A DNA stretch of 64,000 bases from IMG/VR virus record IMGVR_UViG_3300046542_000259; one strand, 5' to 3'. The position numbers were made by a program, and so were the translations under genes. This stretch comes from a virus. Its lineage: Duplodnaviria > Heunggongvirae > Uroviricota > Caudoviricetes. How positions within the stretch are numbered: position 1 is the first letter of the stretch; each line of letters begins with the position of its first letter. The notes under the pieces are model-generated. The model had not been told where the DNA came from and searched no databases. It saw nothing but the letters and a program-made list of their open reading frames with translations. Shown here one piece after another: positions 11,757-50,515 of the stretch.

Positions 11757-12349
11757 TGAAATATTTAGTTTTTGATACCGAAACCACTGGTTTGGTCCAG
11801 TGGGGTGCCTCCCCTATTGACCCAAGACATTGTAAGCTGGTCCAACTTGGTTGCATCCTATTCGACACCAATCATTATGAAATTGCTACATTAAAAACTA
11901 TCGTAATCCCTTTAGCTCCGATTGGGGCTAAAGCAGAAGAGACCCACGGCATTTCTATGGAAGTCGCTAAAGAATACGGTGTCTCGAATGAAAACGCTTT
12001 GGAAATCTTTTGTGATTTTGTCGATATAGCAGACGTTGTCGTGGCTCACAACATGTCATTTGATGCCTTGGTTATGCGCCACGCCGCACATAATGCGAAG
12101 ATGAAGGGCGATATCTTCGAAGGAAAAGAGCTTCGCTGTACCAAAGAAGCCACAACAAGCATCCTGCGCCTACCTAAACCAAATGGCAAAAAGGGCTATA
12201 AGTGGCCCAGCCTTCAAGAATGTATGACTTACTTTTTTAAAGAAGACATTCAAGGGGCGCATGATGCAATGGTTGATGTTAGGGCCTGCGCCAGAGTTTA
12301 CCAAAGCTTGACAAAGAATTTTGAACCGAGAGAGTTAAAGTGGCAATAG
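11756..12349 (+). CDS. DEDDh 3'-5' exonuclease (DnaQ/epsilon-like)
   Basis: FDTETTGL, AHNMSFD, AHDAMVDV. Confidence 0.9.
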   Translation: MKYLVFDTETTGLVQWGASPIDPRHCKLVQLGCILFDTNHYEIATLKTIVIPLAPIGAKAEETHGISMEVAKEYGVSNENALEIFCDFVDIADVVVAHNMSFDALVMRHAAHNAKMKGDIFEGKELRCTKEATTSILRLPKPNGKKGYKWPSLQECMTYFFKEDIQGAHDAMVDVRACARVYQSLTKNFEPRELKWQ

Positions 12350-13461
12350 ATAAAGTGGACATTAAAAAAGGCGCGGCTAAGCTGGTTGAAGAATCTAAAA
12401 TTCTAGACTTCGATAAAATCTTCAATAACTATATGTCTTCTGCGGGTAAGCAGAAGAAATGGATGTATGACCGTAACCTTTCCATGGGTGCGTCTGAAGT
12501 TTTTGATTGTCTCCGCAAGGCATTCTTCAAGAAGCGTGGCTTTGAAATCGATGAGGGTTATGATCAGTCTTGGGGCGCGATGGAGCGCGGCAACCTAATC
12601 GAAGATTACTATGTCGTTCCAGCACTTGACGTAGGTCTTCCTGAAGGTGTTGATCTTATCGGCGCGGGACAAAGTGATCAGACTACATTTCTAGATGAAG
12701 AAAATTTCCTTAGCGCGACACCAGACGGTCTAGTTGCCAATCTTCCTAGCAATGCTCTTAGCCTTTATGGTATTGAAGATATCGAAAGTGATTGTATCAC
12801 GGTTGAAGTGAAATCAATTGATCCTCGTGTCAATCTAACTGAAGAAAAGACGATTCACAGAGGTCAGGTCAATGTCCAAATGGGCTTGATCCGCGATCAG
12901 ACCGATTTCAAGCCACGCTACGCCGTCATTCTTTATGTTGACGCTTCATTCCTTGATAATATTAAACCGTTCATTGTTCGGTTCGATGAAAAAACTTATG
13001 CTGCTGCTAAGCAACGAGCTAAGAAGGTATTTGCGGCTAAAACACCAGAAGACCTAGCCGCTGAAGGCAAAATGACTGGCGCTTGTAAGCTTTGTCAATT
13101 TGCCAAACGTTGTAACATGCTCAATCTAGCAGCTGTGCCAACAGAAAGCTATGACAAAACGACTTCAGATAAAGATCGTGACGCAATGGCTAAATTGGTC
13201 GCTGCTGAGGCTAAGGCTAAAGAAGAATCCAAGAAGGCTGAGCAAGCCGTTGAAGTGGCTAAGCTAGAAATTAAGGAATACCTGAAGAAGCTTGGCACGA
13301 AGAACCTGAAAGCAATTGATGGTTCTTGGAACGTAAGTTACTCCACTCAAAAAGGTCGTACCACGTTAGACAAAGAAGCCATGATTGAAGATGGCATTGA
13401 TCTGACGAAGTATCAGGTGGAAGGAGAAGGTTTTGAGGTGCTGCGCGTAACGGTGAAGTAA
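12340..13461 (+). CDS. PD-(D/E)xK / Cas4-like exonuclease
   Basis: GASE..CLRK, ATPDG, EVKS, Q..Q, C..C.F...C cluster. Confidence 0.8.
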   Translation: MAIDKVDIKKGAAKLVEESKILDFDKIFNNYMSSAGKQKKWMYDRNLSMGASEVFDCLRKAFFKKRGFEIDEGYDQSWGAMERGNLIEDYYVVPALDVGLPEGVDLIGAGQSDQTTFLDEENFLSATPDGLVANLPSNALSLYGIEDIESDCITVEVKSIDPRVNLTEEKTIHRGQVNVQMGLIRDQTDFKPRYAVILYVDASFLDNIKPFIVRFDEKTYAAAKQRAKKVFAAKTPEDLAAEGKMTGACKLCQFAKRCNMLNLAAVPTESYDKTTSDKDRDAMAKLVAAEAKAKEESKKAEQAVEVAKLEIKEYLKKLGTKNLKAIDGSWNVSYSTQKGRTTLDKEAMIEDGIDLTKYQVEGEGFEVLRVTVK

Positions 13462-24712: not shown

Positions 24713-24740
24713 AGTATACCATATTTATTTTAAAAGTCAA
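24713..24740 (-). promoter_or_regulatory. Sigma70-type promoter
   Basis: TTGACT-16 nt-TATACT with TGG before -10. Confidence 0.65.
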
Positions 24741-24758
24741 GATAATCATTCTTGGTAC

Positions 24759-24790
24759 AAAATAACCCCGCCAAGTGGCGGGGTTATTTT
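24759..24790 (-). terminator. Terminator after lysis cassette
   Basis: AAAATAACCCCGCC-aagt-GGCGGGGTTATTTT. Confidence 0.85.
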
Positions 24791-38971: not shown

Positions 38972-39000
38972 ATAAGCGGTTTAATAAGCGAGGATAGAGG

Positions 39001-40707
39001 TTAGGTTATAGCGATATTCTTTTTAGTCAGAGTTAAGCCGCCGCCTGTTTGATCAGAAAAAGCTACTAGGGTTCCTTCGGCCCTTCCGTCTAAGACCGAT
39101 AAATGGGCGTAGGTTAAGGTTACAGAAGTAACTCCGGCTGTGGCATAAGCAAAAGCGGCATTAGGCACGTTACCGCCCGTCAATAGACAGTCGATGGTTG
39201 CTCTAATAGCGGTTAATTTAGTGCCGGTGGCACAGTTAAAACTTTTTGCTGTGCTAGGCTTAATCGTGGAATCGTAAATCCGCCACTCATCATTAGCACC
39301 GAGACTCATATTTACTGGATTGGTGATTACACAGTTATGGAATTGATGGTATCCTCCTGAAGAAGGTGATGAAGGCCATCCGCCTGTGGTCTTACCCCAA
39401 TCTAGACGGCATCCAATGTACTCATCATCTATAGTGGTTTCATATTTAATATAGAAGCCATCTACATTAAATGCTCGGAACTTATGGGCTCCCGCACCTT
39501 GTTTAGAGAAGAATCTGAAAGTTACCAGTTCGTTAACATAACTACCAGCTAATGCACCAGAAATTCTGTTCCGGTGACGGACATTCTGCACCACAGTTTC
39601 ACTATCTCTATAGGCATATACATCGTAAGTGATACCAATATTTTCATCCGTATCAAGGCCATCGATAGTCACATTAGTGCCACGAATCTGGACCGAGGCT
39701 GTGCCACCAAGAGCGGTTTGGAAATCATCATTATGAATATTAATGACGCGGATGTTTTCGAATCTAGCTCCATCAGAATACGGGTGAGTATCCCAAGCCG
39801 CTGCGGTGCAAGAAACAGCTACACCAGAGATAGTCATATCTAATGCCACACCAGCGTTTAGATCTTGACCGTTCCACATACCGTCAGTATAAGCATGACG
39901 AACACTTTCGGCGTGAACAAAAACTCTACCACCTTTACAAGCACCGTAAGCAACAACACCATATCCTAGATTTTGTGGATTGGAGTTTGGGTCGTCCTTC
40001 AAGTTTTTGGTCTTAACGGTGTAATTACCAAGATAGCAGGAGCGGAGGAAGAGACCGACGTGACAATTTCCGTCAATGACCACATCAACAGTTGGATCGA
40101 CACAATAATCAAGTTGAATAACGTTCCTTTTGGTGATCTGATCCCCAGCAAACGATCCTTTAATAGAGCATTTATTTTGATCTACTTTATAAACCGTGCC
40201 ACTCGTCATGGCATCTCTAATTCTACCTTCTAGATAGATCGTGGTTCCAGATACTTTTAATACTCTAAAGTATTCTGCCACGTATACTGGATTGCCAGTG
40301 CTATCGTTGGCATAGAAGGCTGTACTATCCTTAATGTACAAAACATCCTTAGCAGCTATATTAGAATTACTAGCCACAGTTATGGTAGATACATAAGCTC
40401 CAGTGGATGTAGGATACCTAACTAACGAAGTTGCGGAGAATGTAGTAATCTGCTGGTAAGTGTTTGTAACTTTGACGCCCTCTGTTCCAGTAAATACAAT
40501 ACTTCCTTTACCTTCAGTTCTGATGTCACACCAACCAGAAACATTTAAGCCGCTAGATAAAACTAGGGGGTCTTGAATTACTAGTGGGATTTTCTTAGCC
40601 GACATCGCAGCTAAAGCGGCTGATAAATCATCGCCGCTGAAGAAATCAATTTTCCCCGTTAAATTACTTAACAAGTCTTTTGCATTTATAACTGGAACTA
40701 CGGCCAT
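39001..40707 (-). CDS. Right-handed beta-helix spike/depolymerase-like protein
   Basis: GDDLSAALAA entry; EYFRV...G.TIYL insertion; YGV..YG, RHAY, WDTH beta-helix rungs. Confidence 0.72.
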   Translation of the reverse strand: MAVVPVINAKDLLSNLTGKIDFFSGDDLSAALAAMSAKKIPLVIQDPLVLSSGLNVSGWCDIRTEGKGSIVFTGTEGVKVTNTYQQITTFSATSLVRYPTSTGAYVSTITVASNSNIAAKDVLYIKDSTAFYANDSTGNPVYVAEYFRVLKVSGTTIYLEGRIRDAMTSGTVYKVDQNKCSIKGSFAGDQITKRNVIQLDYCVDPTVDVVIDGNCHVGLFLRSCYLGNYTVKTKNLKDDPNSNPQNLGYGVVAYGACKGGRVFVHAESVRHAYTDGMWNGQDLNAGVALDMTISGVAVSCTAAAWDTHPYSDGARFENIRVINIHNDDFQTALGGTASVQIRGTNVTIDGLDTDENIGITYDVYAYRDSETVVQNVRHRNRISGALAGSYVNELVTFRFFSKQGAGAHKFRAFNVDGFYIKYETTIDDEYIGCRLDWGKTTGGWPSSPSSGGYHQFHNCVITNPVNMSLGANDEWRIYDSTIKPSTAKSFNCATGTKLTAIRATIDCLLTGGNVPNAAFAYATAGVTSVTLTYAHLSVLDGRAEGTLVAFSDQTGGGLTLTKKNIAIT

Positions 40708-40709
40708 GT

Positions 40710-40913
40710 TTAAATTTCCTGAATTACATAATTACCTTCATCATCGATGAGGTAATTTGGAGGAGTGGAATCGTCAATGACATAGGCGTAACCAGCGGGG
40801 AGCGATCCAATGGGTGGATCAATGGACCATGATCCACCGCGACTCCTACCACCGCCTTTTGCTGTTGGTGCAGTTTTAAAAGATTTTTTACCAAAAGGAT
40901 ATGAAATTACCAT
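40710..40913 (-). CDS. Small protein MVISYPFGK... with C-terminal DD-Y motif
   Basis: 67-aa ORF coupled to flanking genes. Confidence 0.7.
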   Translation of the reverse strand: MVISYPFGKKSFKTAPTAKGGGRSRGGSWSIDPPIGSLPAGYAYVIDDSTPPNYLIDDEGNYVIQEI

Positions 40914-40917
40914 TTTA

Positions 40918-41355
40918 TTAACTTCTTAGGATTTGCTCATCACGCCTAAATGGGATTCGAACCACGACACGATCCGCGCCTCGCTCCATACCAACGACTA
41001 AATGACTTGGTGTTCTAAAAATTAAAGTCCCCGCATTTAGGGTAGGGATACTTTGGCGACGATAAATTTTACCTAAAAAATCGGAAACATTGTTTTGTTT
41101 CATTGTTCCGCTATCTAGTGGAGTAATGACATCGAACTGAAGTATACCGACGTGCCGATCAATTTCTCTCGTTTTAGCTAATTGGGCTTGATCCGAGTCG
41201 CCATGAATGATAGAGATTTTAATATATGTTTTATTATCTGGTGTTTCGAAAGGCTGATTCGGGAACTGAATCGGCACGTCTGGAAACGTAGTAGTGAATC
41301 CAGATGTAGCGAGTTTTTGAGTAATGGCTTGGCGTACTTCATCTAGTGCTGACAT
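40918..41355 (-). CDS. Tail terminator protein
   Basis: I..PNQPF..P, G.L..DV.TP..SG, V.IPF motifs; position. Confidence 0.8.
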   Translation of the reverse strand: MSALDEVRQAITQKLATSGFTTTFPDVPIQFPNQPFETPDNKTYIKISIIHGDSDQAQLAKTREIDRHVGILQFDVITPLDSGTMKQNNVSDFLGKIYRRQSIPTLNAGTLIFRTPSHLVVGMERGADRVVVRIPFRRDEQILRS

Positions 41356-41366
41356 TTATTAATTCC

Positions 41367-43418
41367 TCAGTTCGCGACCCAATCAGTACCGTTCCAACGC
41401 AGCCTCAATGTTCTGCCGATAGCAATAGTTTCATTGGTTCCGATATTGATGCGGTTCGCACCGGTAGTGACTTGTAACGTATTGGTGGAAGCGGCAAGAT
41501 TTCTGATGATCATTTCTTGACCAAAAAATAATCCAGCCGATATGTTATTGATCGCGATTGAGGCAGCACTTGTTGTGACATCAACGTTAATCACTGGTGA
41601 CATTCTATGATCAATGTCTAGTGTTTGTGTCGTTCCACTGCTATAGGTTACAGCTATGGTTGAGCGAGCCGCTGATCGTAGATCATTAGTGATAGTTCTA
41701 ACTTCATAATCAACGCCATAAACCGGCGAACCACTTCCAGCAATAATTCCATCCACGTTTGACGGGGTTCTATTCGCGATAATGTTTTTGACATAAGCCG
41801 TGGCTGAAACGTTGACGAATTGTACCAGTGCGGTCCAAGTACTAACTACAGCATTAATTCTCAGACCATCAATAAGTAGTACGGCGGATGAAGAAGTCAT
41901 TCTTCCCGTTCTTAATTGTGTTCCAGTTGTGCCGGTATAATCAAGTTCGCCGCCTCTAACAATCATCGTGGCTGTGGCGTTAACTTCGAAAATACGGGCC
42001 ACAGCTGCGCCGGTTTGCGCCGCTTTGATCCATGGTTCGATGATTGTCATTTCCCCATTTGTAGCCTCAAAAGAAGGAGTGGAACCAGAAGTTTGAATCA
42101 CACTAGGTCTAGTAATTCTAATACCAGTGACTTGGCCCCCGGATTGACCCACGATTTGAAAACCAGCTAGATCGCCATTAGCGCCCCCGGTTTGATTTGG
42201 GTTAGCCACGTGTTTACAATTAATGGCTTCGTGATCGCGTGAGTTATCTGGACTACCATAATCGGTGAAGAAATTGTACCCAATACCACCGACTGAGACG
42301 CAATCAATAGCTCTAGTTCTACGTCCTCTAAAGCCGTAGTTGACAGGATTTCCGTTTTCGCCAGAATATGCGTATTCAGCGAAACAGCCAATGAATGTCA
42401 CGTCATCAGCGTCGGAATGGGTTTCGAACGCAGCTGTTTTGCAATTAAAGCCTCTACCGCCAATTACTACCGTACCATAAGTTCCACCATAATTTTCAAC
42501 AAATGCGGAACCGTTATCAGCACCTAGGGCAGAGCAGGAATACACGTGGCGAACATCAAATCCTGTAGGATTATAATGTCTACCTTGATGACAGCCGACT
42601 TCGTGAATGAGATATCCGAACGCGTCGTATGTGACGCTTGTTCTAATATTTTTACCACTTAGATCGTATGTCGTCGGTTCATAGCAGGAGACCAATCGAA
42701 CAAAACGTTCCACCAGATTAGAGACCTTAATATTTTCAAGACTTGGTTGATAAAATCCGATAACGTCGATATAAGACTTTGACCAAGTAGGGTCAGGAGA
42801 AGTCTGCCCTATAATTTCACAATTCTTAAATGAGAAGCGCTGACTTTCGTTGTGGATAGAAACGCGGGGAGATGTTGTATAACTCCGTCTAAGGCGAGAA
42901 AATAATTGAATTTTTTTATTGGGTACATCTATGGCTGAGACTCGGGCAAACTCCGCAATCTTTTGATTGTCGGCAGGGTCTGCACCAGAAATAATGTCGT
43001 CGGAAAAAATTTTAACCAGAGCACCTACGGCGTAACCCGTAATACTAGAAACGGTTAGTGTAGTGACTTCGTTAGCCAGAGCTACAGTGCCATTAGATAA
43101 ATCAGCTGTGGTCGTATTGTCAATAAGTGTAATATTTGTTGTATTCGTATATGAAGCTTTAGCTGCTAGGAGTTGGGTGTCGCCAGCAATTTTAATCTTA
43201 CATCCTTGACCGTCGAAAATAACATCTTTGTTTGTTTGGGTATGAGACGTGGTAATAAGATAAGTAGCATCCGCTCTTCCTTTGAAGGGAATACCTTTGG
43301 ACAGGGCAAGATCAAACGCAGCGTCATCCGGGGTTACACCATCGCCTTTAGCTCCGCAAGCTTCTAGGCTGACGTAACCAATTAAACTATCAATATGGAT
43401 TGTAGGGACGCTAGCCAT
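41367..43418 (-). CDS. Right-handed beta-helix spike/depolymerase-like protein (pectate lyase 3-like)
   Basis: GAKGDGVTPDDAAF entry; GYLI, RHVY, FETH rungs; C-terminal beta-sandwich. Confidence 0.8.
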   Translation of the reverse strand: MASVPTIHIDSLIGYVSLEACGAKGDGVTPDDAAFDLALSKGIPFKGRADATYLITTSHTQTNKDVIFDGQGCKIKIAGDTQLLAAKASYTNTTNITLIDNTTTADLSNGTVALANEVTTLTVSSITGYAVGALVKIFSDDIISGADPADNQKIAEFARVSAIDVPNKKIQLFSRLRRSYTTSPRVSIHNESQRFSFKNCEIIGQTSPDPTWSKSYIDVIGFYQPSLENIKVSNLVERFVRLVSCYEPTTYDLSGKNIRTSVTYDAFGYLIHEVGCHQGRHYNPTGFDVRHVYSCSALGADNGSAFVENYGGTYGTVVIGGRGFNCKTAAFETHSDADDVTFIGCFAEYAYSGENGNPVNYGFRGRRTRAIDCVSVGGIGYNFFTDYGSPDNSRDHEAINCKHVANPNQTGGANGDLAGFQIVGQSGGQVTGIRITRPSVIQTSGSTPSFEATNGEMTIIEPWIKAAQTGAAVARIFEVNATATMIVRGGELDYTGTTGTQLRTGRMTSSSAVLLIDGLRINAVVSTWTALVQFVNVSATAYVKNIIANRTPSNVDGIIAGSGSPVYGVDYEVRTITNDLRSAARSTIAVTYSSGTTQTLDIDHRMSPVINVDVTTSAASIAINNISAGLFFGQEMIIRNLAASTNTLQVTTGANRINIGTNETIAIGRTLRLRWNGTDWVAN

Positions 43419-43439
43419 AATAAATATACCTTAAATAAA

Positions 43440-43494
43440 ATAATCCCCAATTATACCATACTTTTCTAAAAAGTCAAGTATAATTGAGGATTAT
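43440..43494 (-). terminator. 17-bp hairpin terminator with a promoter (TTGACT-16-TATAAT, 43450-43477) spanning its loop
   Basis: Arms 43440-43456 and 43478-43494 (one G-U in - strand RNA), followed by TTTATTT. Confidence 0.7.
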
Positions 43495-43512
43495 CCAGTT
43501 TTTTGAGCCCCG

Positions 43513-43566
43513 TTTAATTTACTTAACAATTGTTCCATCGTAATTCCAAACATACCGCTTGGACTA
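43513..43566. repeat. 54-bp direct repeat, copy A (orphan 3' end of neck gene)
   Basis: 53/54 identical to 45648-45701; reads SPSGMFGITMEQLLSKLN-GAQKTG-stop on - strand. Confidence 0.95.
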
Positions 43567-43577
43567 AGGTTTTCTCG

Positions 43578-45563
43578 TTAAGCTAAATCGTTAGTTCCAG
43601 TTACGGTAGGTGCTACGGCCATACCACTAACATCGTATGCCACGGTATAACCAGTTCCTAGATTTCTATCTATAATCAGCTTGTTCGGAGCTGAGCTATT
43701 TGATTGTTCAAGTTTAATAGGAGCTGTTCCGTTTACAGTTCGTAGACTGTTTTCATAAATTGTATTCTGATGGATCGTGCCAATATTAAAGTTGAAAGTT
43801 GAACCAGCATTGGTTCTTAAACGAATAGCAGACGTAGTTGTGCCTAGTCTCGTGTGGTTATATATTTGATTGTTTGCTATCTGTAATTCTCTAATACTCA
43901 AAGTGCTGCTGCCAGCGACCTCGACAAGAATGGCTTCTAGTGGACAACTGTTAATTATGTTTCTGGATATATTAAGGACGCCAAGAGTTCTATTACGTGC
44001 TATCTGGACAAAAATAGCTGAGTTCGAATTGCCACCAGCACTGTTTAAATCATTATCCGTAATACTAATTTCTTGAGTACCAAACGTCGATACATAGATA
44101 AAAGGGCACCGACCAACATTGGACAATCGATTTCTACGGCATCTTACATCTTCAGCCGCAATGTAAATACATTGAAGGGATGATACAATTGTGGCCATGT
44201 TAACATTATCACCTTCAGTATCTTCTACCGTGACATGCCCATTATTATTTATCTGAACCGCAACGGCATACGTGTCAGTATTCTTAATTTTATTCCTAGC
44301 GACGATCTTAGTATTTTCATTGCCATCAGAAAGGCTAATAGCACCAACGGTCATGCCGATACTACCATCAGCCATTTTACCGTCTAGAATATTGTCATGC
44401 ACATGAGCATCGCCGGGGATGTAAACACCGCCATTAGTAGTCACTGTGTCTAGGACGTTGAAACCGGCTGCTTGGCCTTCAATGCCGATTTCATAAATTT
44501 GCCTGAATGTGTTATTATGAACGTGAGCATCGGTGTAGTGGAATTCTACGCCACTGCCTTTAATATTTTCATGTTCATTAAAAGCATACTCAAGTAGGTC
44601 GCCGTTTAATGATGGATTGGTACGTACATAAATACCACCTACAGTAGCGCCATTTCTATCCGCCGCTGCTGTTCCAGTTCCGGCAGTTCCGCCGAATCCT
44701 AAATTTTTAAATTTATTACCAATGAGAGTACGTCTCTTAACATCGTTACAAAAAACGCCGGAGTGTGGGAAATTGTTAAATTCACAATCAGTCACTTCTA
44801 TGTCAAGGCATCCTACAAATTTTACGCCAAAGAGCGTTTTCGTAGTTGAAAGAATTCCAGAGGTGTAGCCACCATCAAAAACAATACCAGATATTTTAGA
44901 CCATTCCGCAAAACTAGAAGGGTCTAAAATTCTGTCTTGAATTCGATTACCAAAACTTGTGGTCTGCGCCACAGGGTTAGTAGGGGCTACGGCATACGTG
45001 CCGGGAGACCCAACCGTGACAGTGGTAATGGCCCCATAAGCCGTGCCACTAATTGCTGATACAATAAGTTGACCACCTGTAATGTTTATAGCATCTCCGA
45101 CGTTGTAACCCGTTCCTCCTGAAGCCACAGTTGCGGATACAATGCTTAGGTTAGGTGCAGAGCCAGTCATCACCAAATTGAACGTAGCTCCTGTACCTGA
45201 AGCCATACGTCCAGTTTGTGTTCCATATCGTTGGGCCGTGGTTCTGTTACCTAGATTTAACAATCCTCCACCTACGCTAGGGAATGTGGGATTATTTGGA
45301 TAGTTAGTGCCAAGTCCTTGAAATTTGGAGGCTCCTTTTATACCGTGGATATGTATGTTTTGTGGTAAGGTAATATTTGCAGCCACATCAATACCGTATT
45401 CGCCGGGAGGAATAAAAAGAGAATGATCACCAGCATCGTATACTGAATTAATTGCGTTTTGAATCGCAACAGATTTATCAGTTCCGCCTTTATGAATGGC
45501 AAAATCAGATAATGAAGGACTGGCAATGGCAGTCGATAATTTAATTGTATTGACGCGTGCCAT
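43578..45563 (-). CDS. Right-handed beta-helix spike/depolymerase-like protein (pectate lyase 3-like)
   Basis: GGTDKSVAIQNAI...LFIPPGEY entry; Asn ladder; Gly/Thr-rich insertion. Confidence 0.8.
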   Translation of the reverse strand: MARVNTIKLSTAIASPSLSDFAIHKGGTDKSVAIQNAINSVYDAGDHSLFIPPGEYGIDVAANITLPQNIHIHGIKGASKFQGLGTNYPNNPTFPSVGGGLLNLGNRTTAQRYGTQTGRMASGTGATFNLVMTGSAPNLSIVSATVASGGTGYNVGDAINITGGQLIVSAISGTAYGAITTVTVGSPGTYAVAPTNPVAQTTSFGNRIQDRILDPSSFAEWSKISGIVFDGGYTSGILSTTKTLFGVKFVGCLDIEVTDCEFNNFPHSGVFCNDVKRRTLIGNKFKNLGFGGTAGTGTAAADRNGATVGGIYVRTNPSLNGDLLEYAFNEHENIKGSGVEFHYTDAHVHNNTFRQIYEIGIEGQAAGFNVLDTVTTNGGVYIPGDAHVHDNILDGKMADGSIGMTVGAISLSDGNENTKIVARNKIKNTDTYAVAVQINNNGHVTVEDTEGDNVNMATIVSSLQCIYIAAEDVRCRRNRLSNVGRCPFIYVSTFGTQEISITDNDLNSAGGNSNSAIFVQIARNRTLGVLNISRNIINSCPLEAILVEVAGSSTLSIRELQIANNQIYNHTRLGTTTSAIRLRTNAGSTFNFNIGTIHQNTIYENSLRTVNGTAPIKLEQSNSSAPNKLIIDRNLGTGYTVAYDVSGMAVAPTVTGTNDLA

Positions 45564-45597
45564 AACAAACCCTTAGTAGAAAAATTGAATATCGTGT

Positions 45598-45625
45598 ATT
45601 ATACCACGATATTTAAAAAAGTCAA
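45598..45625 (-). promoter_or_regulatory. Sigma70-type promoter of the repeat-flanked cassette
   Basis: TTGACT-16 nt-TATAAT with TGG. Confidence 0.75.
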
Positions 45626-45631
45626 GTTTTA

Positions 45632-46114
45632 TCAGAGTGATCCGCTATTTAATTTACTTAACAATTGTTCCATCGTGATTCCAAACATACCGCTTGGACT
45701 ACGAGACTTAAACGGAGCGCCGGGAAGTTCTCCTACTTCAAGACCAGCCACACTATCTGTGTTGTTAGAAATGAAAATTTTAACGAATGGTTTGTTGGGA
45801 TCAATCTTTAAATTAGTTAATGATCCTTCAGCCGCTTTTTCATTCGCGCCACGACGTGGCTCAAGCCCTAATGGCATATTATTAGTTTGACCGATGGGCC
45901 CCGATTCGATAGGGCTGTAAACCGCGCCAGAAGGTGCATTCATGGTGAGGATGTAATTTCTCACCGTAGTGCCTTCGTGAACCGGCGTTTTAGACATTAA
46001 TTGCTTATGGCTATATCTTGCAGCCGTGTCGAGGCGCTTCGCGAAATCCTTTTTCCATTTCGGGAAGTACGCCTCTAGCTGTTTCGTAAATTGGACAGAA
46101 TTGGATTTAAACAT
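45632..46114 (-). CDS. Neck / tail-completion protein (HK97 gp10-like)
   Basis: TPVHEGT.VRNY, IFISNN, LE.G, SP.GMFGIT; position among joining genes. Confidence 0.7.
   Translation of the reverse strand: MFKSNSVQFTKQLEAYFPKWKKDFAKRLDTAARYSHKQLMSKTPVHEGTTVRNYILTMNAPSGAVYSPIESGPIGQTNNMPLGLEPRRGANEKAAEGSLTNLKIDPNKPFVKIFISNNTDSVAGLEVGELPGAPFKSRSPSGMFGITMEQLLSKLNSGSL
45648..45701. repeat. 54-bp direct repeat, copy B (within neck gene 3' end)
   Basis: One synonymous difference from copy A. Confidence 0.95.
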
Positions 46115-46888
46115 TTATAATTCTACAGGTAGCGGTGGAGGACTGGTAATACGCCCTGATAAATCAGTTTTACCTACCGAAAGGTTTGCGACACGAACCT
46201 TAAAAGTTTCAGTAGTCTCATATCTATAAATACCTACTTTCCAATAAGGCCCAACCACGTCTTGGTATCCCATGGGAAAGTTTGTCGCGTTAACAATTTG
46301 GTTCTCATTTAACCAAACACTTAACTCAGCCGCTGTGGGAGAAAATATAAAACGTGCAACAAACCGATACCATTGGTTTAAATTGAAAGGCCCTGATTGA
46401 TAGTGAGTCGTAGGATTCACTGTATCAACCAAAGGGTCTTGCGTTGTCCCGTAAGTTCTAATTCTCCAACCAGTATCAACCAGTTCAAGTTTATAAATTG
46501 GTTGGGCCGTCACATCATCAGGATCAGGTGTGGCGTGCCATTGTCCTAGATATAACCATTGAGCATTGGTTGGTGCTCCAAGTAATTTAAAATCGTAAGC
46601 TACCCAATATGTCTCTCCAAAATTAGCAGTCTCAACTTTGGAGATTTCTGCTCTCTCATACGGTCGAGACAGTGAAGCATCGGTGGCCCATTTATCCCCT
46701 GATCTAACCTCAAACAAGAAATCATTGTCTTGGGCGTTTCTTTGAATGTTCCAACTATTCTCAGCTGTGCTAAGGATATAATTGTTTTCCTCTATCGCAG
46801 GAGTAAAGGAGTAATTAATTGTTTGAAAATTAGGAATAGGAGTTGGCTTTACGTACAATCTATTTCTTAATCTGACGAAATTACTCAT
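46115..46888 (-). CDS. Polysaccharide lyase-like (heparin lyase fold) protein
   Basis: FEVRSGD, ERAE, LGQWH, L.VWLN, YWKVGIYR. Confidence 0.8.
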   Translation of the reverse strand: MSNFVRLRNRLYVKPTPIPNFQTINYSFTPAIEENNYILSTAENSWNIQRNAQDNDFLFEVRSGDKWATDASLSRPYERAEISKVETANFGETYWVAYDFKLLGAPTNAQWLYLGQWHATPDPDDVTAQPIYKLELVDTGWRIRTYGTTQDPLVDTVNPTTHYQSGPFNLNQWYRFVARFIFSPTAAELSVWLNENQIVNATNFPMGYQDVVGPYWKVGIYRYETTETFKVRVANLSVGKTDLSGRITSPPPLPVEL

Positions 46889-46889
46889 A

Positions 46890-47420
46890 TTACCACCTCA
46901 ATACAGCGGCGGTCCCCGTTCCTGATGCTACGATACCATAAAGGGTCGAGGTGTATCCGGTTAGGATATTGGAAGGCAATTCTTCATCTGGTTTTAATCT
47001 ATATCCATTAGAAACAGTGACGCTGCTGGAACCACCTACATAAATATCGACAGAGCCAATGTTTTTTACCACGCCACCTAATCTAGCAGTATTGCTAGCC
47101 ACAATTACGGTAGCTGTAGTGGTAACAGTCACTTGTGAATGGTTCATTACCGATGTAGTTTTTTGACTATCGACTCTGAGTCGCCCCGTTAGAGTTAGTG
47201 ATGGCGGTCTTGCTTGACCTTCACCATAAACTGGTTCTGCTGCGGATGCAGAAGATAGTGTAAGATTCCCCTTTAAGCCGGTTAACGACGCGCCTTGATC
47301 AAGCTCTGAGGACACGTGAGTAATCGCTACCGGAATATCGATATCAATGGGAAGCCCGGTATCCGGGTCTATAATTTTTGCTTCTAAGACACCTAGTTTT
47401 GCGGTAGGGACTACTGCCAT
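46890..47420 (-). CDS. Putative head-spike base / jelly-roll virion protein
   Basis: C-terminal V.N.G...IYVG...GY.L.P...YGI beta-sandwich pattern; position among spike genes. Confidence 0.5.
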   Translation of the reverse strand: MAVVPTAKLGVLEAKIIDPDTGLPIDIDIPVAITHVSSELDQGASLTGLKGNLTLSSASAAEPVYGEGQARPPSLTLTGRLRVDSQKTTSVMNHSQVTVTTTATVIVASNTARLGGVVKNIGSVDIYVGGSSSVTVSNGYRLKPDEELPSNILTGYTSTLYGIVASGTGTAAVLRW

Positions 47421-47432
47421 TTTAATTTCCTT

Positions 47433-48878
47433 TTAAGATGAAACAACGTCATAAAGTCTATTGCCACCAATGGTTAGGTTCAAAATTTCAGCCGGTTTAA
47501 TTCCGTTTGCACCGTAGAACCAACAAGTTCCTCGCATTCTATTATGGCGCAACGCTCTTAAAAAGTTTTTCTGTAACGCTCTCCAATCAGCATCGCTGGA
47601 TGGGACACCAAATTCCCCGTAAAATCCTTTGACACCTACTTCGGTACACCAAGCGTTAAATTTATCAAAAGCTTCCACGCCGCTGTTGGGCGTGATGTTA
47701 TAGGATGCATAGCTGCCAGAATATGATCCACCGCCGCCGACACCTTGTGGACCATCAAAATATTGGTGAGCTTCAAAAATTATATTACCGCCTGTAACAA
47801 GGCACATTTCATAATTCTCTCTGTACCAACGATCCCCATTACCAAAGTCGAATCCAGCGACATAAATCGGCATGTCAGCATCAATGGCACGAATTGCTGT
47901 TACAGCGGCTTGGGCATGGCCTAGCCACGGATTAGGCTCATATGTCGTGGCTGAAGAACCTAATTCAAGCTGAGCATTGGCGACGATGATAGAATTACCC
48001 GCCGCCATGTTACATTGAACTCCAATATCCTGAGTACCAGCCGTTGGTGTGCCGGTAAGAGTGAAACGCTGCCATGTTGTTGTGACTGTGTGAGTGCTTG
48101 CCAGTGCGCCGATATGCAGGCGAAGATTCCCTGTCCCGCTGGCAACTTTGGCGTACACGGAATGAGCCATAGGAACCGCCGTAACGGCAATTTGCTGAAA
48201 TACTTTACCAAAGCCGCCAGACGAACCGCTGTTAAGTTGCCATGCCGGTCCATAACCAGCGCCAAGTGGATTTGAGCCTACGGCAAGCTGAACCGCGCTT
48301 CCGCCGTTAGCTGTGGACCAAGGAAAGCTTCCCGGTGGCATGAAATAATTTGGTATCTTGAGAAGGTTTTTAGCCGGAATACCTGACCCCGGTTCATTCA
48401 TGATGCCATAACCAACTACCCCAGCTACATCTTTAATAGCTGTGGTTAACTTTTGCCAAACATCAACTAGATGAGCCGTGGTTAGTGTGCCATCACCAAT
48501 GACGTTCACACCAGAAGCTAGGGTATGGCGATTACCGGCATAACCAACAGTCGTGGTCCAAACAGATTGATCCGCGTAATAACCAAAGTTGTGAAGATCA
48601 ACTATAACGCCCATGCCAAGAGTATGGGCAATATTAATAGTGTTTTTTAAATTATTCAAATAGGTAGTGTCGAGATTGCCACCGAGAGTAGGTTGCAAAC
48701 TTTCCCAAGCAATCGGCAATCGGACAAGGTTTACTCGCTGCGCCGCTAGAAATGTTAGATCAGCCGTGGTGGGCCAAGTTTGACCATTCCATGGAGAAAA
48801 TTCAGGCCCTGATAAATTTACGCCGAAGAAGCCTCTAACTCCTCTACGAGTTTTGCGGGAATCTTTTTGAATCGTCAT
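47433..48878 (-). CDS. Glycoside hydrolase family 5 with inserted carbohydrate-binding-like domain
   Basis: GVNLSG.EF, RLPIAWE, DLHN, IMNEP (acid/base), EAHQYFD, GEFG (nucleophile); insert ending AQLELGSSATTYEP. Confidence 0.88.
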   Translation of the reverse strand: MTIQKDSRKTRRGVRGFFGVNLSGPEFSPWNGQTWPTTADLTFLAAQRVNLVRLPIAWESLQPTLGGNLDTTYLNNLKNTINIAHTLGMGVIVDLHNFGYYADQSVWTTTVGYAGNRHTLASGVNVIGDGTLTTAHLVDVWQKLTTAIKDVAGVVGYGIMNEPGSGIPAKNLLKIPNYFMPPGSFPWSTANGGSAVQLAVGSNPLGAGYGPAWQLNSGSSGGFGKVFQQIAVTAVPMAHSVYAKVASGTGNLRLHIGALASTHTVTTTWQRFTLTGTPTAGTQDIGVQCNMAAGNSIIVANAQLELGSSATTYEPNPWLGHAQAAVTAIRAIDADMPIYVAGFDFGNGDRWYRENYEMCLVTGGNIIFEAHQYFDGPQGVGGGGSYSGSYASYNITPNSGVEAFDKFNAWCTEVGVKGFYGEFGVPSSDADWRALQKNFLRALRHNRMRGTCWFYGANGIKPAEILNLTIGGNRLYDVVSS

Positions 48879-48889
48879 TTTATTTTCCT

Positions 48890-50515
48890 TTAAGGTGCGA
48901 CGGCGTAGATAGTTTGTACTACTGGATGATTTAGTGAATCAACGGGTAGGGAATACGAACCACCGCTCAACGTGGCATTGAGTGTTTGTTTTCCAAGATT
49001 TAGAGCAAGAGGAGCGCCAACACGTGGGAATAGTGACACGGTATCTTCTTCCCAATTCTGGTACTCAACAATGGCTGTGCCACCATTTCCAGCGTTGCGG
49101 TAAATGCCCCACTTCCAATAACCACCATTGGTGTGATCCCAATAACCAAACGGAATTAAGCCAGTATCTACGACTTGGACGCCATTGATCCAAACCTTGG
49201 CATACCCAACTGTCGCATCAACCTTGTGAGTCATGACGATGTTATGATATACATCTCTGGGAAAATTGATCCAACGATAAAGCTCAACCACGGCGGATTG
49301 TCCCCCGCTACCATTATAAATTCTTTTATCAATCACGAGATCATTTCCAACCATCTTGATTGAGAAATATGGAGAGCGGTCGTCGGAGGCATCACCGTGC
49401 CATTGACCAATGATAAACCAAGCCTGTGGATTGGTAGAGGTTGTGAAATTACTGTCAACTTTAAATGCATGACTGTTCCAAACATCAACACTCTTAGCAA
49501 AGCGCGAACCAGTCATCATTTCAGAGCGCTCTTTTTCTGCGGTATCTTCGATACAAACGTCACCGTTTTTCACAGTAAAGCGCTGTACATCACTGTTCCA
49601 GTAAAGATGATTGATGGGCCACTCTGCGCCAGATTGAGCCACGAACGTTTGGCATACCTTGTCTCTATATTGCACCGTTCGTTGAAGAACTGCACGAGGA
49701 TTGTCAGCGAATTTAACTTCGACTTGAGCATTCTGTGGTAGCAGGAGTGGTAGTGCATCAGCGGCGCGAGTTACTTGCGCTGTGGTGGTTTGAATTGGGC
49801 TGGTTGGGGATTTCCCAACTTCTACCTGCATGTTTGAAACAAGAACAGATGTAAATAGATCGGTGTTTCCGACGTGTAGCACAGGCGAGATTGCAGTATT
49901 GCCAGTAATGGTCTGAAAGAAAACTGAAACCAGTTGTGGTTTATCAGTCAGTCTTACAGTAACGGTATTTCCCGCATAGCTACCGCCAGCATATCTTTTA
50001 ATTTCTAACGCAGCAAGTTTACCAATATTGGCTCCTTCGCCCATGACATAACACCAAGCACAATACCATTCACCAACGGTTACACCAGTAGTAATTTGTT
50101 GATCGCAAAGAAGGGCATTAGCGGTTTCACTGTTACGATAAAAGCGTGTGAAGTTACCATAAGCTGGGGCTGGGATTGCGGTGGCTTCGCTTGTGGCAGT
50201 ACCTAAGAGTCGCCAAGCTGCGTTCGTCAAATCACCAGAATATAGCGCCATGTTAGTCGCGGCCTTTTCTAGCCGAGCCCCTTGGCTTCCTTGACGAATC
50301 ACATTACTACTAACACTGGCCCAAACATTTGTGCCAGTGTTTTGGTACGCCGAGCTATTCCGAGTAAATGTTAGGGCTTGGGTTTGGGTGACTTTGGAGC
50401 CAAGCAGAGCGTACCGTGCGCCAACGGCGTCCCAAGCCCACATGCCGTTCCACCAAATATTTGCTTTTAAAAATTTAGCTGCTTTTTTCTTTTTATCGCG
50501 TTGGCTTAAGGCCAT
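48890..50515 (-). CDS. Head-spike fibre domain protein fused to a polysaccharide lyase-like domain
   Basis: TFTRNSSA...LEKAATN...Q.E.G..PTSPI.TT...VTRAAD; ERSE, IGQWH, YWKWGIYR. Confidence 0.72.
   Translation of the reverse strand: MALSQRDKKKKAAKFLKANIWWNGMWAWDAVGARYALLGSKVTQTQALTFTRNSSAYQNTGTNVWASVSSNVIRQGSQGARLEKAATNMALYSGDLTNAAWRLLGTATSEATAIPAPAYGNFTRFYRNSETANALLCDQQITTGVTVGEWYCAWCYVMGEGANIGKLAALEIKRYAGGSYAGNTVTVRLTDKPQLVSVFFQTITGNTAISPVLHVGNTDLFTSVLVSNMQVEVGKSPTSPIQTTTAQVTRAADALPLLLPQNAQVEVKFADNPRAVLQRTVQYRDKVCQTFVAQSGAEWPINHLYWNSDVQRFTVKNGDVCIEDTAEKERSEMMTGSRFAKSVDVWNSHAFKVDSNFTTSTNPQAWFIIGQWHGDASDDRSPYFSIKMVGNDLVIDKRIYNGSGGQSAVVELYRWINFPRDVYHNIVMTHKVDATVGYAKVWINGVQVVDTGLIPFGYWDHTNGGYWKWGIYRNAGNGGTAIVEYQNWEEDTVSLFPRVGAPLALNLGKQTLNATLSGGSYSLPVDSLNHPVVQTIYAVAP

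Follow-up and report, generated by a model that had tools for sequence, protein, structure and literature searches.

The 64,000-nucleotide (nt) stretch of the viral record IMGVR_UViG_3300046542_000259 analysed here (the window) belongs to a large T5-like siphovirus of about 165 kb. In its head-tail joining module, two copies of a 54-nt segment from the 3' end of the neck gene lie on either side of a gene for a putative polysaccharide depolymerase. We propose that this repeat is probably a recombination seam, joined by homologous recombination on the side of the neck gene and by an illegitimate event on the other side, and not a dedicated recombination site.

The two copies, at positions 43513-43566 (copy A) and 45648-45701 (copy B), are identical at 53 of 54 positions, in exact runs of 24 and 29 nt, and are spaced 2135 nt apart, in a locus where all genes are on the minus strand. 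The sole mismatch is synonymous, as both ATC and ATT encode isoleucine. The 64-kb window contains these two copies and no more, and none of 100 dinucleotide shuffles of the window yielded a repeat-like match. Copy B is the final part of the open reading frame (ORF) of the neck gene (45632-46114; 160 amino acids, aa) and reads LLSKLN-SGSL up to the stop codon, whereas copy A reads LLSKLN-GAQKTG and reaches its stop at 43491-43493, immediately ahead of the next promoter. The 2135-nt unit thus bracketed consists of a neck end, a consensus extended -10 promoter (45598-45625) and the 661-aa beta-helix gene. The initial annotation of this stretch had described the duplication, with its single synonymous change, in these terms, and had called copy B live and copy A an orphan running into the following promoter; the description proved correct in every detail, the ORF ends included, and the contents given for the unit were borne out. 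The similarity between the contexts of copy A and copy B begins sharply at the first base of the repeat, and neither flank is similar; such an abrupt start is as at an illegitimate join.

Two other candidate relations of the repeat were rejected. A third partial copy at 40654-40679 (21 of 26 positions) appeared non-random in mononucleotide shuffles, but has an E-value of only 0.2 in blastn-short, and a match of the same score in that search sits within a J-like gene, so that it is probably due to chance. The stretch, which matches the end of copy A, falls in frame at codons 10-18 of a 568-aa spike gene (DLLSNLTG versus QLLSKLNG). A definition of the repeat by the neck gene's most conserved patch was also discarded: the repeat overlaps a conserved patch, yet is not the best 54-nt window.

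The same structure was recovered from other samples. A Joint Genome Institute (JGI) contig from 3300046615 (L007) differs from the window by one mismatch in 12,835 nt, and Logan contig L021 from SRR26076635 is 100% identical over 9,728 nt; both contain the two copies with the same C/T difference. According to their gene maps, contigs from 3300048090 (JGI) and SRR26077535 (Logan) agree as far as they reach, the two-cassette form is found in all five assemblies that reach both genes, and the exact neck, 661-aa and 683-aa proteins occur on contigs of other samples. Since assemblies from four other samples carry the structure, it is no assembly artefact, a danger that the initial annotation had raised. 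A literature search for the sample accessions gave no paper.

A comparison with 13 loci, representing eight distinct relatives with neck proteins of 70-84% amino acid identity, indicates what was inserted. In all eight, the neck gene is contiguous with the gene for a 123-aa head-tail protein on one side and the tail terminator gene on the other, and the neck stop overlaps the terminator start (TAATG). Because neck and terminator abut in these relatives, the 4.3-kb two-cassette block between them is, on this evidence from gene order, an insertion specific to the lineage of the window. Distant homologues of the neck protein in large siphoviruses carry the annotation neck or tail completion. Of the neck homologues, all but one were called at 160 aa, and most terminate in xG(S/T)(L/I), as in SGSI, AGSL, GGSL and SGTI, with ARSL and AKAI as exceptions. 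Copy B, and not copy A, therefore has the ancestral neck end. Neither a neck variant ending in GAQKTG nor a single-cassette intermediate was found in a set of 5.8 billion protein clusters, in which the cluster of the window's neck protein has one member sequence. As copy B keeps the SGSL end and no homologue has the GAQKTG tail, copy A meets cassette DNA at a junction on its right edge; its left edge is just as abrupt. The neck gene as a whole averages 69% nucleotide identity to relatives, versus one difference in 54 nt between the two copies, which implies that their sources were very closely related. Immediately ahead of the terminator start, a stretch that might be left over from the ancestral neck end (GGAATTAATAAATG compared with GGAAGTTTATAATG) was too weak to use.

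The cargo genes of the two cassettes encode different proteins. The 661-aa protein is predicted to be a parallel beta-helix by its Atlas model, which has template-modelling (TM) scores of 0.55-0.59 to folds of the pectate-lyase/GH28 type, and its sole homologue (28% identical) carries the Pfam domain Beta_helix. The 683-aa protein has homologues of 35-69% identity, and those examined are in unrelated phage or prophage contexts. Sequence searches against solved structures gave no useful match for either protein. The two proteins are unrelated to each other (E > 1), which rules out that the cassettes are diverged tandem duplicates and requires two acquisitions. The GC content of the cassettes is like that of the backbone.

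Each cassette has a promoter of the phage's own type. The promoter of the 683-aa gene matches the consensus at 11 of 12 positions and has an extended -10 element, and the two cassette promoters are the top two promoter-like sites in the 16.5 kb scanned. The pattern TTGACTTTTT-N10-14-GGTATAAT has just two matches in 64 kb, namely these promoters, although the two regions are alike at only about 77% over 35 nt and at a different offset. A core, ACTTGACTTTTT, is common to both cassette promoters and the tail-tube promoter, in the window as well as in relatives. Five exact copies of this core are present (19835, 38898, 43468, 45616 and 55580) where about one is expected, all of them upstream of genes: those for the small subunit of ribonucleotide reductase (RNR), the tail tube, both cassette proteins and a head-module protein. 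This is probably the phage's own promoter class, and the sharing of the core with the tail-tube promoter indicates that the cassettes have circulated within the phage family. The hairpin that encloses the 683-aa promoter (inverted repeat I1, 43440-43494) has a predicted stability of -30.5 kcal/mol (z = -5.4) and is followed by a U-run; a composite of palindrome and promoter also precedes the tail-tube gene. The features of the locus are collected in Table 1.

Table 1. Features of the neck-terminator region, with positions in the window
Feature	Position	Strand	Remarks
Tail terminator gene	40918-41355	-	Pfam Phage_tail_terminator_5; immediate neighbour of the neck gene in all relatives
683-aa depolymerase-like beta-helix protein, second stacked cassette	41367-43418	-	Pfam Phage_depo_C, E 4e-10
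Composite hairpin with 26-nt arms, enclosing the 683-aa promoter (43450-43477), followed by UUUUAUUU	43440-43494	-	
Derived tail after copy A, encoding GAQKTG and stop	43491-43512	-	Matches the end of no neck homologue
Repeat copy A, orphan non-coding neck 3' end	43513-43566	-	In frame with the 661-aa gene beyond its TAA
Spacer CGAGAAAACCT (11 nt) from the 661-aa stop to copy A; presumed illegitimate junction	43567-43577	-	
661-aa predicted parallel beta-helix protein, putative polysaccharide depolymerase or spike; cargo of the 2135-nt unit	43578-45563	-	
Promoter of the 661-aa gene, TTGACT-16-TATAAT with TG; hairpin over the -10 box	45588-45625	-	11/12 match; terminator-like hairpin
Neck gene (Neck1/tail-completion type), 160 aa, ending in LLSKLNSGSL and stop	45632-46114	-	PHROG 169, E 3e-4
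Repeat copy B, live 3' part of the neck gene (SPSGMFGITMEQLLSKLN)	45648-45701	-	Overlaps one of the two best-conserved patches of the neck gene

From these data we infer the following order of events. In the ancestor the neck stop would have overlapped the tail-terminator start, as it does in the relatives. The lineage would then have gained two unrelated beta-helix genes for glycan degradation at the neck-terminator junction, each with a strong promoter of the family type. Their stacking was probably achieved by one exchange between two close phage variants with different cassettes behind the neck gene. In such a two-parent cross, a homologous join would have been made within or upstream of the neck gene, and an illegitimate join would have linked DNA 3' of the 661-aa gene with the neck gene of the partner, 54 nt short of where homology ends. 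The exchange could be classified as homology-facilitated illegitimate recombination (HFIR) or as an unequal crossover, and would have left copy A stranded as non-coding DNA between the cassettes. As is typical of such events, the duplicated segment comes from a conserved gene of the same phage, and homology stops sharply on either side of it. The orphan copy is found at no other cassette boundary in the window and in no relative, as expected of a one-off seam. At present the repeat would be only a 54-bp substrate for the general homologous recombination of phage or host, and deletion, circularisation or amplification of the 2135-bp unit could occur through it at a low rate. The phage encodes a recombination exonuclease of the RecE/Cas4 type at 12340-13461.

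Several points weigh against this proposal. A parent with a single cassette was absent from every collection searched, be it in the form neck-661 or neck-683. A megablast search with positions 39000-47500 returned no similar phage record, and a scan of viral contigs for the repeat and for relatives of the 661-aa and 683-aa proteins found none. Scans of metagenome contigs, first by neck alignment and then for the repeat, gave no match in a collection that is without even the parental contigs, and are hence uninformative. Also, a parent with a neck protein ending in GAQKTG would be without the conserved C-terminal motif, which makes its viability doubtful, and the extent of microhomology at the illegitimate join can be judged only with the parental sequence at hand. 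Finally, a contig of 2165 nt that resembles a closed cycle suggests that, in nature, the repeat may be recombining more than would a merely passive scar.

This contig bears on the strongest alternative, namely that the repeat recurrently excises the 661-aa cassette as a 2135-bp circle, which reinserts or is tandemly amplified, so that populations switch their enzyme repertoire. We regard such active cycling as a serious but unlikely explanation of the locus. The Logan contig, from SRR26076610, encodes the exact 661-aa protein at 139-2124 and, if colinear with the window, would start at base 1 of copy B and stop at base 30 of copy A, a span of 2135 + (k-1). Unitigs were simulated at k = 31 from seven or fewer kinds of input, namely the parental form, homogenised repeats, the two deletion types, the two tandem types and circles, taken singly and in every mixture of two or three; a length of 2165 nt resulted from a closed cycle only, and no linear mixture gave this length with the gene at 139. 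A cut exactly at the first base of the repeat, with the repeat unitig glued to the body and weak flanks pruned, would imply that in this sample the depth of the unit exceeds that of its flanks, be it as a circle or as a tandem array. Two other runs read through both copies, so the parental form is unbroken there. We tentatively entertain the possibility that SRR26076610 contains the 2135-bp unit as a closed circle or in a tandem array, at a level above that of the phage backbone. Cycling also has a precedent in mini-circles of T4-type phages (see below), and a 54-bp repeat is close in length to the small homology patches (<50 bp) cited for T4 recombination. Against it, the closed cycle is read from just three numbers, the contig size and the gene coordinates, and a similar pattern could come from identical repeats whose thinly covered flanks had been pruned. 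No neck protein of the deletion form is on record, all five assemblies reaching both genes have the two-cassette form, and there is one repeat pair only, with none in relatives. The initial annotation had proposed that a single crossover excises the unit cleanly and leaves an intact neck gene with an alternative C-terminus. A crossover would indeed remove exactly 2135 nt and leave a neck gene ending in GAQKTG, followed by the promoter and the 683-aa gene, but whether this is clean is uncertain: the product would lose the C-terminal motif that is kept in almost every neck homologue seen. Its further expectation of variable cassettes around the neck holds in that cassette content varies, every relative having none at the junction, but no single-cassette or deleted form was encountered; relatives with cassettes each preceded by a neck repeat were not found among the eight, and none of these contains an orphan 3' end of a neck or terminator gene. 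Continuing excision or amplification of the 2135-bp unit is possible.

Contig ends near the 5' end of the neck gene bear on cassette content as well. In several samples contigs break at the neighbouring boundary between a polysaccharide lyase gene and the neck gene, which suggests a population that is polymorphic in its cassettes and is in line with active cycling. Logan contigs of SRR26076635 (L021) and SRR26077535 both begin at 46094, a unitig (L027) ends at 46065 with an exact 30-nt overlap, indicative of a one-sided graph branch, and a JGI contig (L026) ends at 46109. These breaks at 46065-46109, in the first 50 nt of the neck gene, suggest a population variant with other DNA upstream of the neck gene. 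Three samples share a Logan unitig of 1417 nt (46065-47481) that contains only two genes, one for a 176-aa protein and the other for a polysaccharide lyase of 257 aa. This block may be a polymorphic cassette with its left boundary inside the 3' end of an upstream gene, and the natural population seems to be polymorphic in cassette content around the neck gene. The unitig begins 48 nt ahead of the stop of a GH5 gene.

The seam could also have arisen, though rather improbably, in a single replication accident with several template switches, of the type termed microhomology-mediated break-induced replication or fork stalling and template switching (MMBIR/FoSTeS). A polymerase copying the 683-aa cassette in behind the 661-aa gene would have picked up 54 nt of the nearby neck gene, and no single-cassette sibling would ever have been needed. 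This agrees with the lack of intermediates, with the abruptness of both edges of copy A, and with a patch source merely 2.1 kb away and nearly identical, and it requires no phage with the non-conserved GAQKTG neck end. On the other hand, three illegitimate joins would be needed in one event, and the retention of the neck frame, in frame and codon-exact, is equally expected from a cross. The accident predicts nothing separable here from a two-parent cross, and as no intermediate was found the two are indistinguishable. By either route, copy A is left behind as a non-coding relic.

It is very unlikely that copy A is itself functional, whether as a read-through extension of the 661-aa protein (TAA, then RENLSPSGMFGITMEQLLSKLNGAQKTG and a stop), as a 20-codon ORF, or as an RNA or regulatory element retained ahead of both promoters. 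Its frame continues that of the 661-aa gene past a single TAA, and the only difference between the copies is synonymous; but such placement would arise by chance in one case out of three, and a single difference in 54 nt is uninformative on selection. Moreover, copy A has no convincing ribosome site and no stable structure inside the repeat, the structure lying in the hairpin of the downstream promoter, and relatives are without such an element upstream of their cassette promoters. At 43567-43580 the frame of copy A is joined to that of the 661-aa gene as TAA-RENL-SPSGMFGITMEQLLSKLNGAQKTG followed by a stop, which is probably a coincidence. An assembly artefact has next to no probability, as the repeat is shorter than a read, its exact runs of 24 and 29 nt are below k-1 = 30, and several samples processed with different assemblers give the same structure and the same C/T difference.

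Integrase-free addition and loss of phage cassettes through short repeats is already known. The promoter early stem-loop (PeSL) cassettes of T4-type phages combine accessory genes, a strong promoter of the sigma-70 type and a stem-loop with short direct flanking repeats, and depend on general recombination in place of an integrase (Arbiol et al. 2010, PMC2839356; Comeau et al. 2014, PMC4122927). Deletion, insertion and mini-circles have been proposed for them, mini-circles were shown by inverse PCR, and the authors liken the system to integrons (PMC2839356; PMC4122927). The present locus resembles PeSL in having strong sigma-70-like promoters in or beside hairpins at the cassette boundaries, and terminator-promoter composites precede the tail-tube gene and another spike unit too. 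The composite of the spike unit, at 24715-24790 on the minus strand, is a GC-rich hairpin terminator (AACCCCGCC...GGCGGGGTT plus T-run) directly followed by a TTGACT/TATACT promoter, upstream of a 56-aa ORF (YPFGK) and a 513-aa spike gene, and is itself PeSL-like. In contrast to PeSL, the bracketing repeat is the coding end of a neck gene and not a promoter/stem-loop motif, there is one repeat pair instead of dozens, and the cargo consists of large enzymes of the virion-associated type in the head-tail joining module of a T5-like siphovirus, whereas PeSL cargo consists of small ORFans in hyperplastic regions.

The seam itself recalls HFIR, in which one end is homologous and one illegitimate, and which places foreign DNA beside a conserved anchor with short duplications or deletions at the seam (PMC3240628). 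It was described for transforming or conjugating linear DNA in bacteria, usually with deletion (PMC3240628). Here, in contrast, a cross between phages would have left a duplication of 54 nt. With respect to gene content, the cassettes are also comparable to morons, which reportedly (Hendrix and colleagues) are promoter-gene units inserted between genes that are adjacent in relatives. Each cassette is self-promoted and situated between genes that abut in all eight relatives; classical morons, however, are small, frequently foreign in composition and known from temperate phages, whereas the units described here hold enzyme genes of 2 kb, share their promoter type with the rest of the phage and resemble the backbone in GC. 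In phages of the SP6/K1-5 type and in Ackermannviridae, tandem receptor-degrading spikes are exchanged by recombination in conserved flanking sequence. A similar situation is seen in one relative (L004), with two tandem paralogous spikes and a 239-nt 5' repeat, versus one spike in another (L002). The conserved part in those phages is an intergenic promoter or an N-terminal anchor, while in the window it is the stranded end of another gene.

With integrons, to which the initial annotation had likened the locus as an array for adding or dropping modules, only the general picture of stacked add/drop cassettes is shared. There are no attC-like folded cassette ends and no single upstream Pc promoter, as each cassette is self-promoted, and the repeat occurs at one of about seven accessory-gene boundaries. 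No integrase was identified among the ORFs at 36-52 kb, which are all structural or glycan-enzyme genes, nor among 20 further ORFs of the window, and no common recombination site exists at the other cassette boundaries in the window. The locus can be accommodated by known kinds of event and element (an HFIR-type scar, PeSL-like self-promoted cassettes and morons), and the integron-like interpretation is not supported as stated.

The surroundings of the locus also vary between phages. Apart from its structural genes, the window encodes a T5-type DNA-transfer protein, a deoxynucleoside monophosphate (dNMP) phosphatase, DNA polymerase I, a Dda-like helicase and RNR. The 683-aa gene is followed by the tail terminator, a 67-aa ORF, a 568-aa spike, the tail-tube protein, a chaperone and the tape measure. 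On the other side, between the 123-aa gene and the neck gene (46115-50515), four genes for a 541-aa lyase-like protein, a 481-aa GH5 protein, the 176-aa protein and the 257-aa polysaccharide lyase form a tightly packed, promoterless glycan-enzyme block that is absent from all relatives and hence lineage-specific. In the relatives, variable carbohydrate-active genes are found only between terminator and tube gene, where L006 and L011 have none, L009 and L015 have one each, and L002, L003, L004 and L016 have two to four. The tandem spikes of L004 (L004:10952-14437; 568 and 572 aa), which share the 239-nt 5' repeat at 74% identity and have similar C-termini, and the single spike of L002 (L002:10970-12676) represent a copy-number variation at this terminator-tube hotspot, with a different repeat.

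Four accessory proteins of the window, with gene starts at 40707, 43418, 45563 and 47420, begin with MA(V/S/R)V(P/N)(T/V) and have almost no N-terminal anchor domain ahead of the beta-helix. If they are attached to the virion at all, their siting among the neck genes suggests mounting on the neck or collar. In addition, a homologue of the 683-aa protein (43% identical) ends a prophage-like block beside RND (resistance-nodulation-division) efflux and TetR genes (L019:10001-22481) on a 118-kb bacterial contig from the same study, and may thereby hint at the host group.

At the level of single bases, the locus illustrates how a large environmental phage can build a multi-enzyme arsenal, by stacking promoter-enzyme genes behind a conserved structural gene, and the position of the seam helps in interpreting the evolution of host range and in spotting scars of this sort elsewhere. 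If the circular or amplified form of the cassette is real, such seams would stay recombinationally active in nature and could alter a receptor-degrading enzyme's dosage, or whether it is present at all. General recombination alone would then excise or amplify a depolymerase-type cassette through the stranded end of a core gene, and this would be the first sighting in a natural population of a PeSL-like mini-circle or 'gene accordion' for a host-recognition enzyme of a siphovirus.

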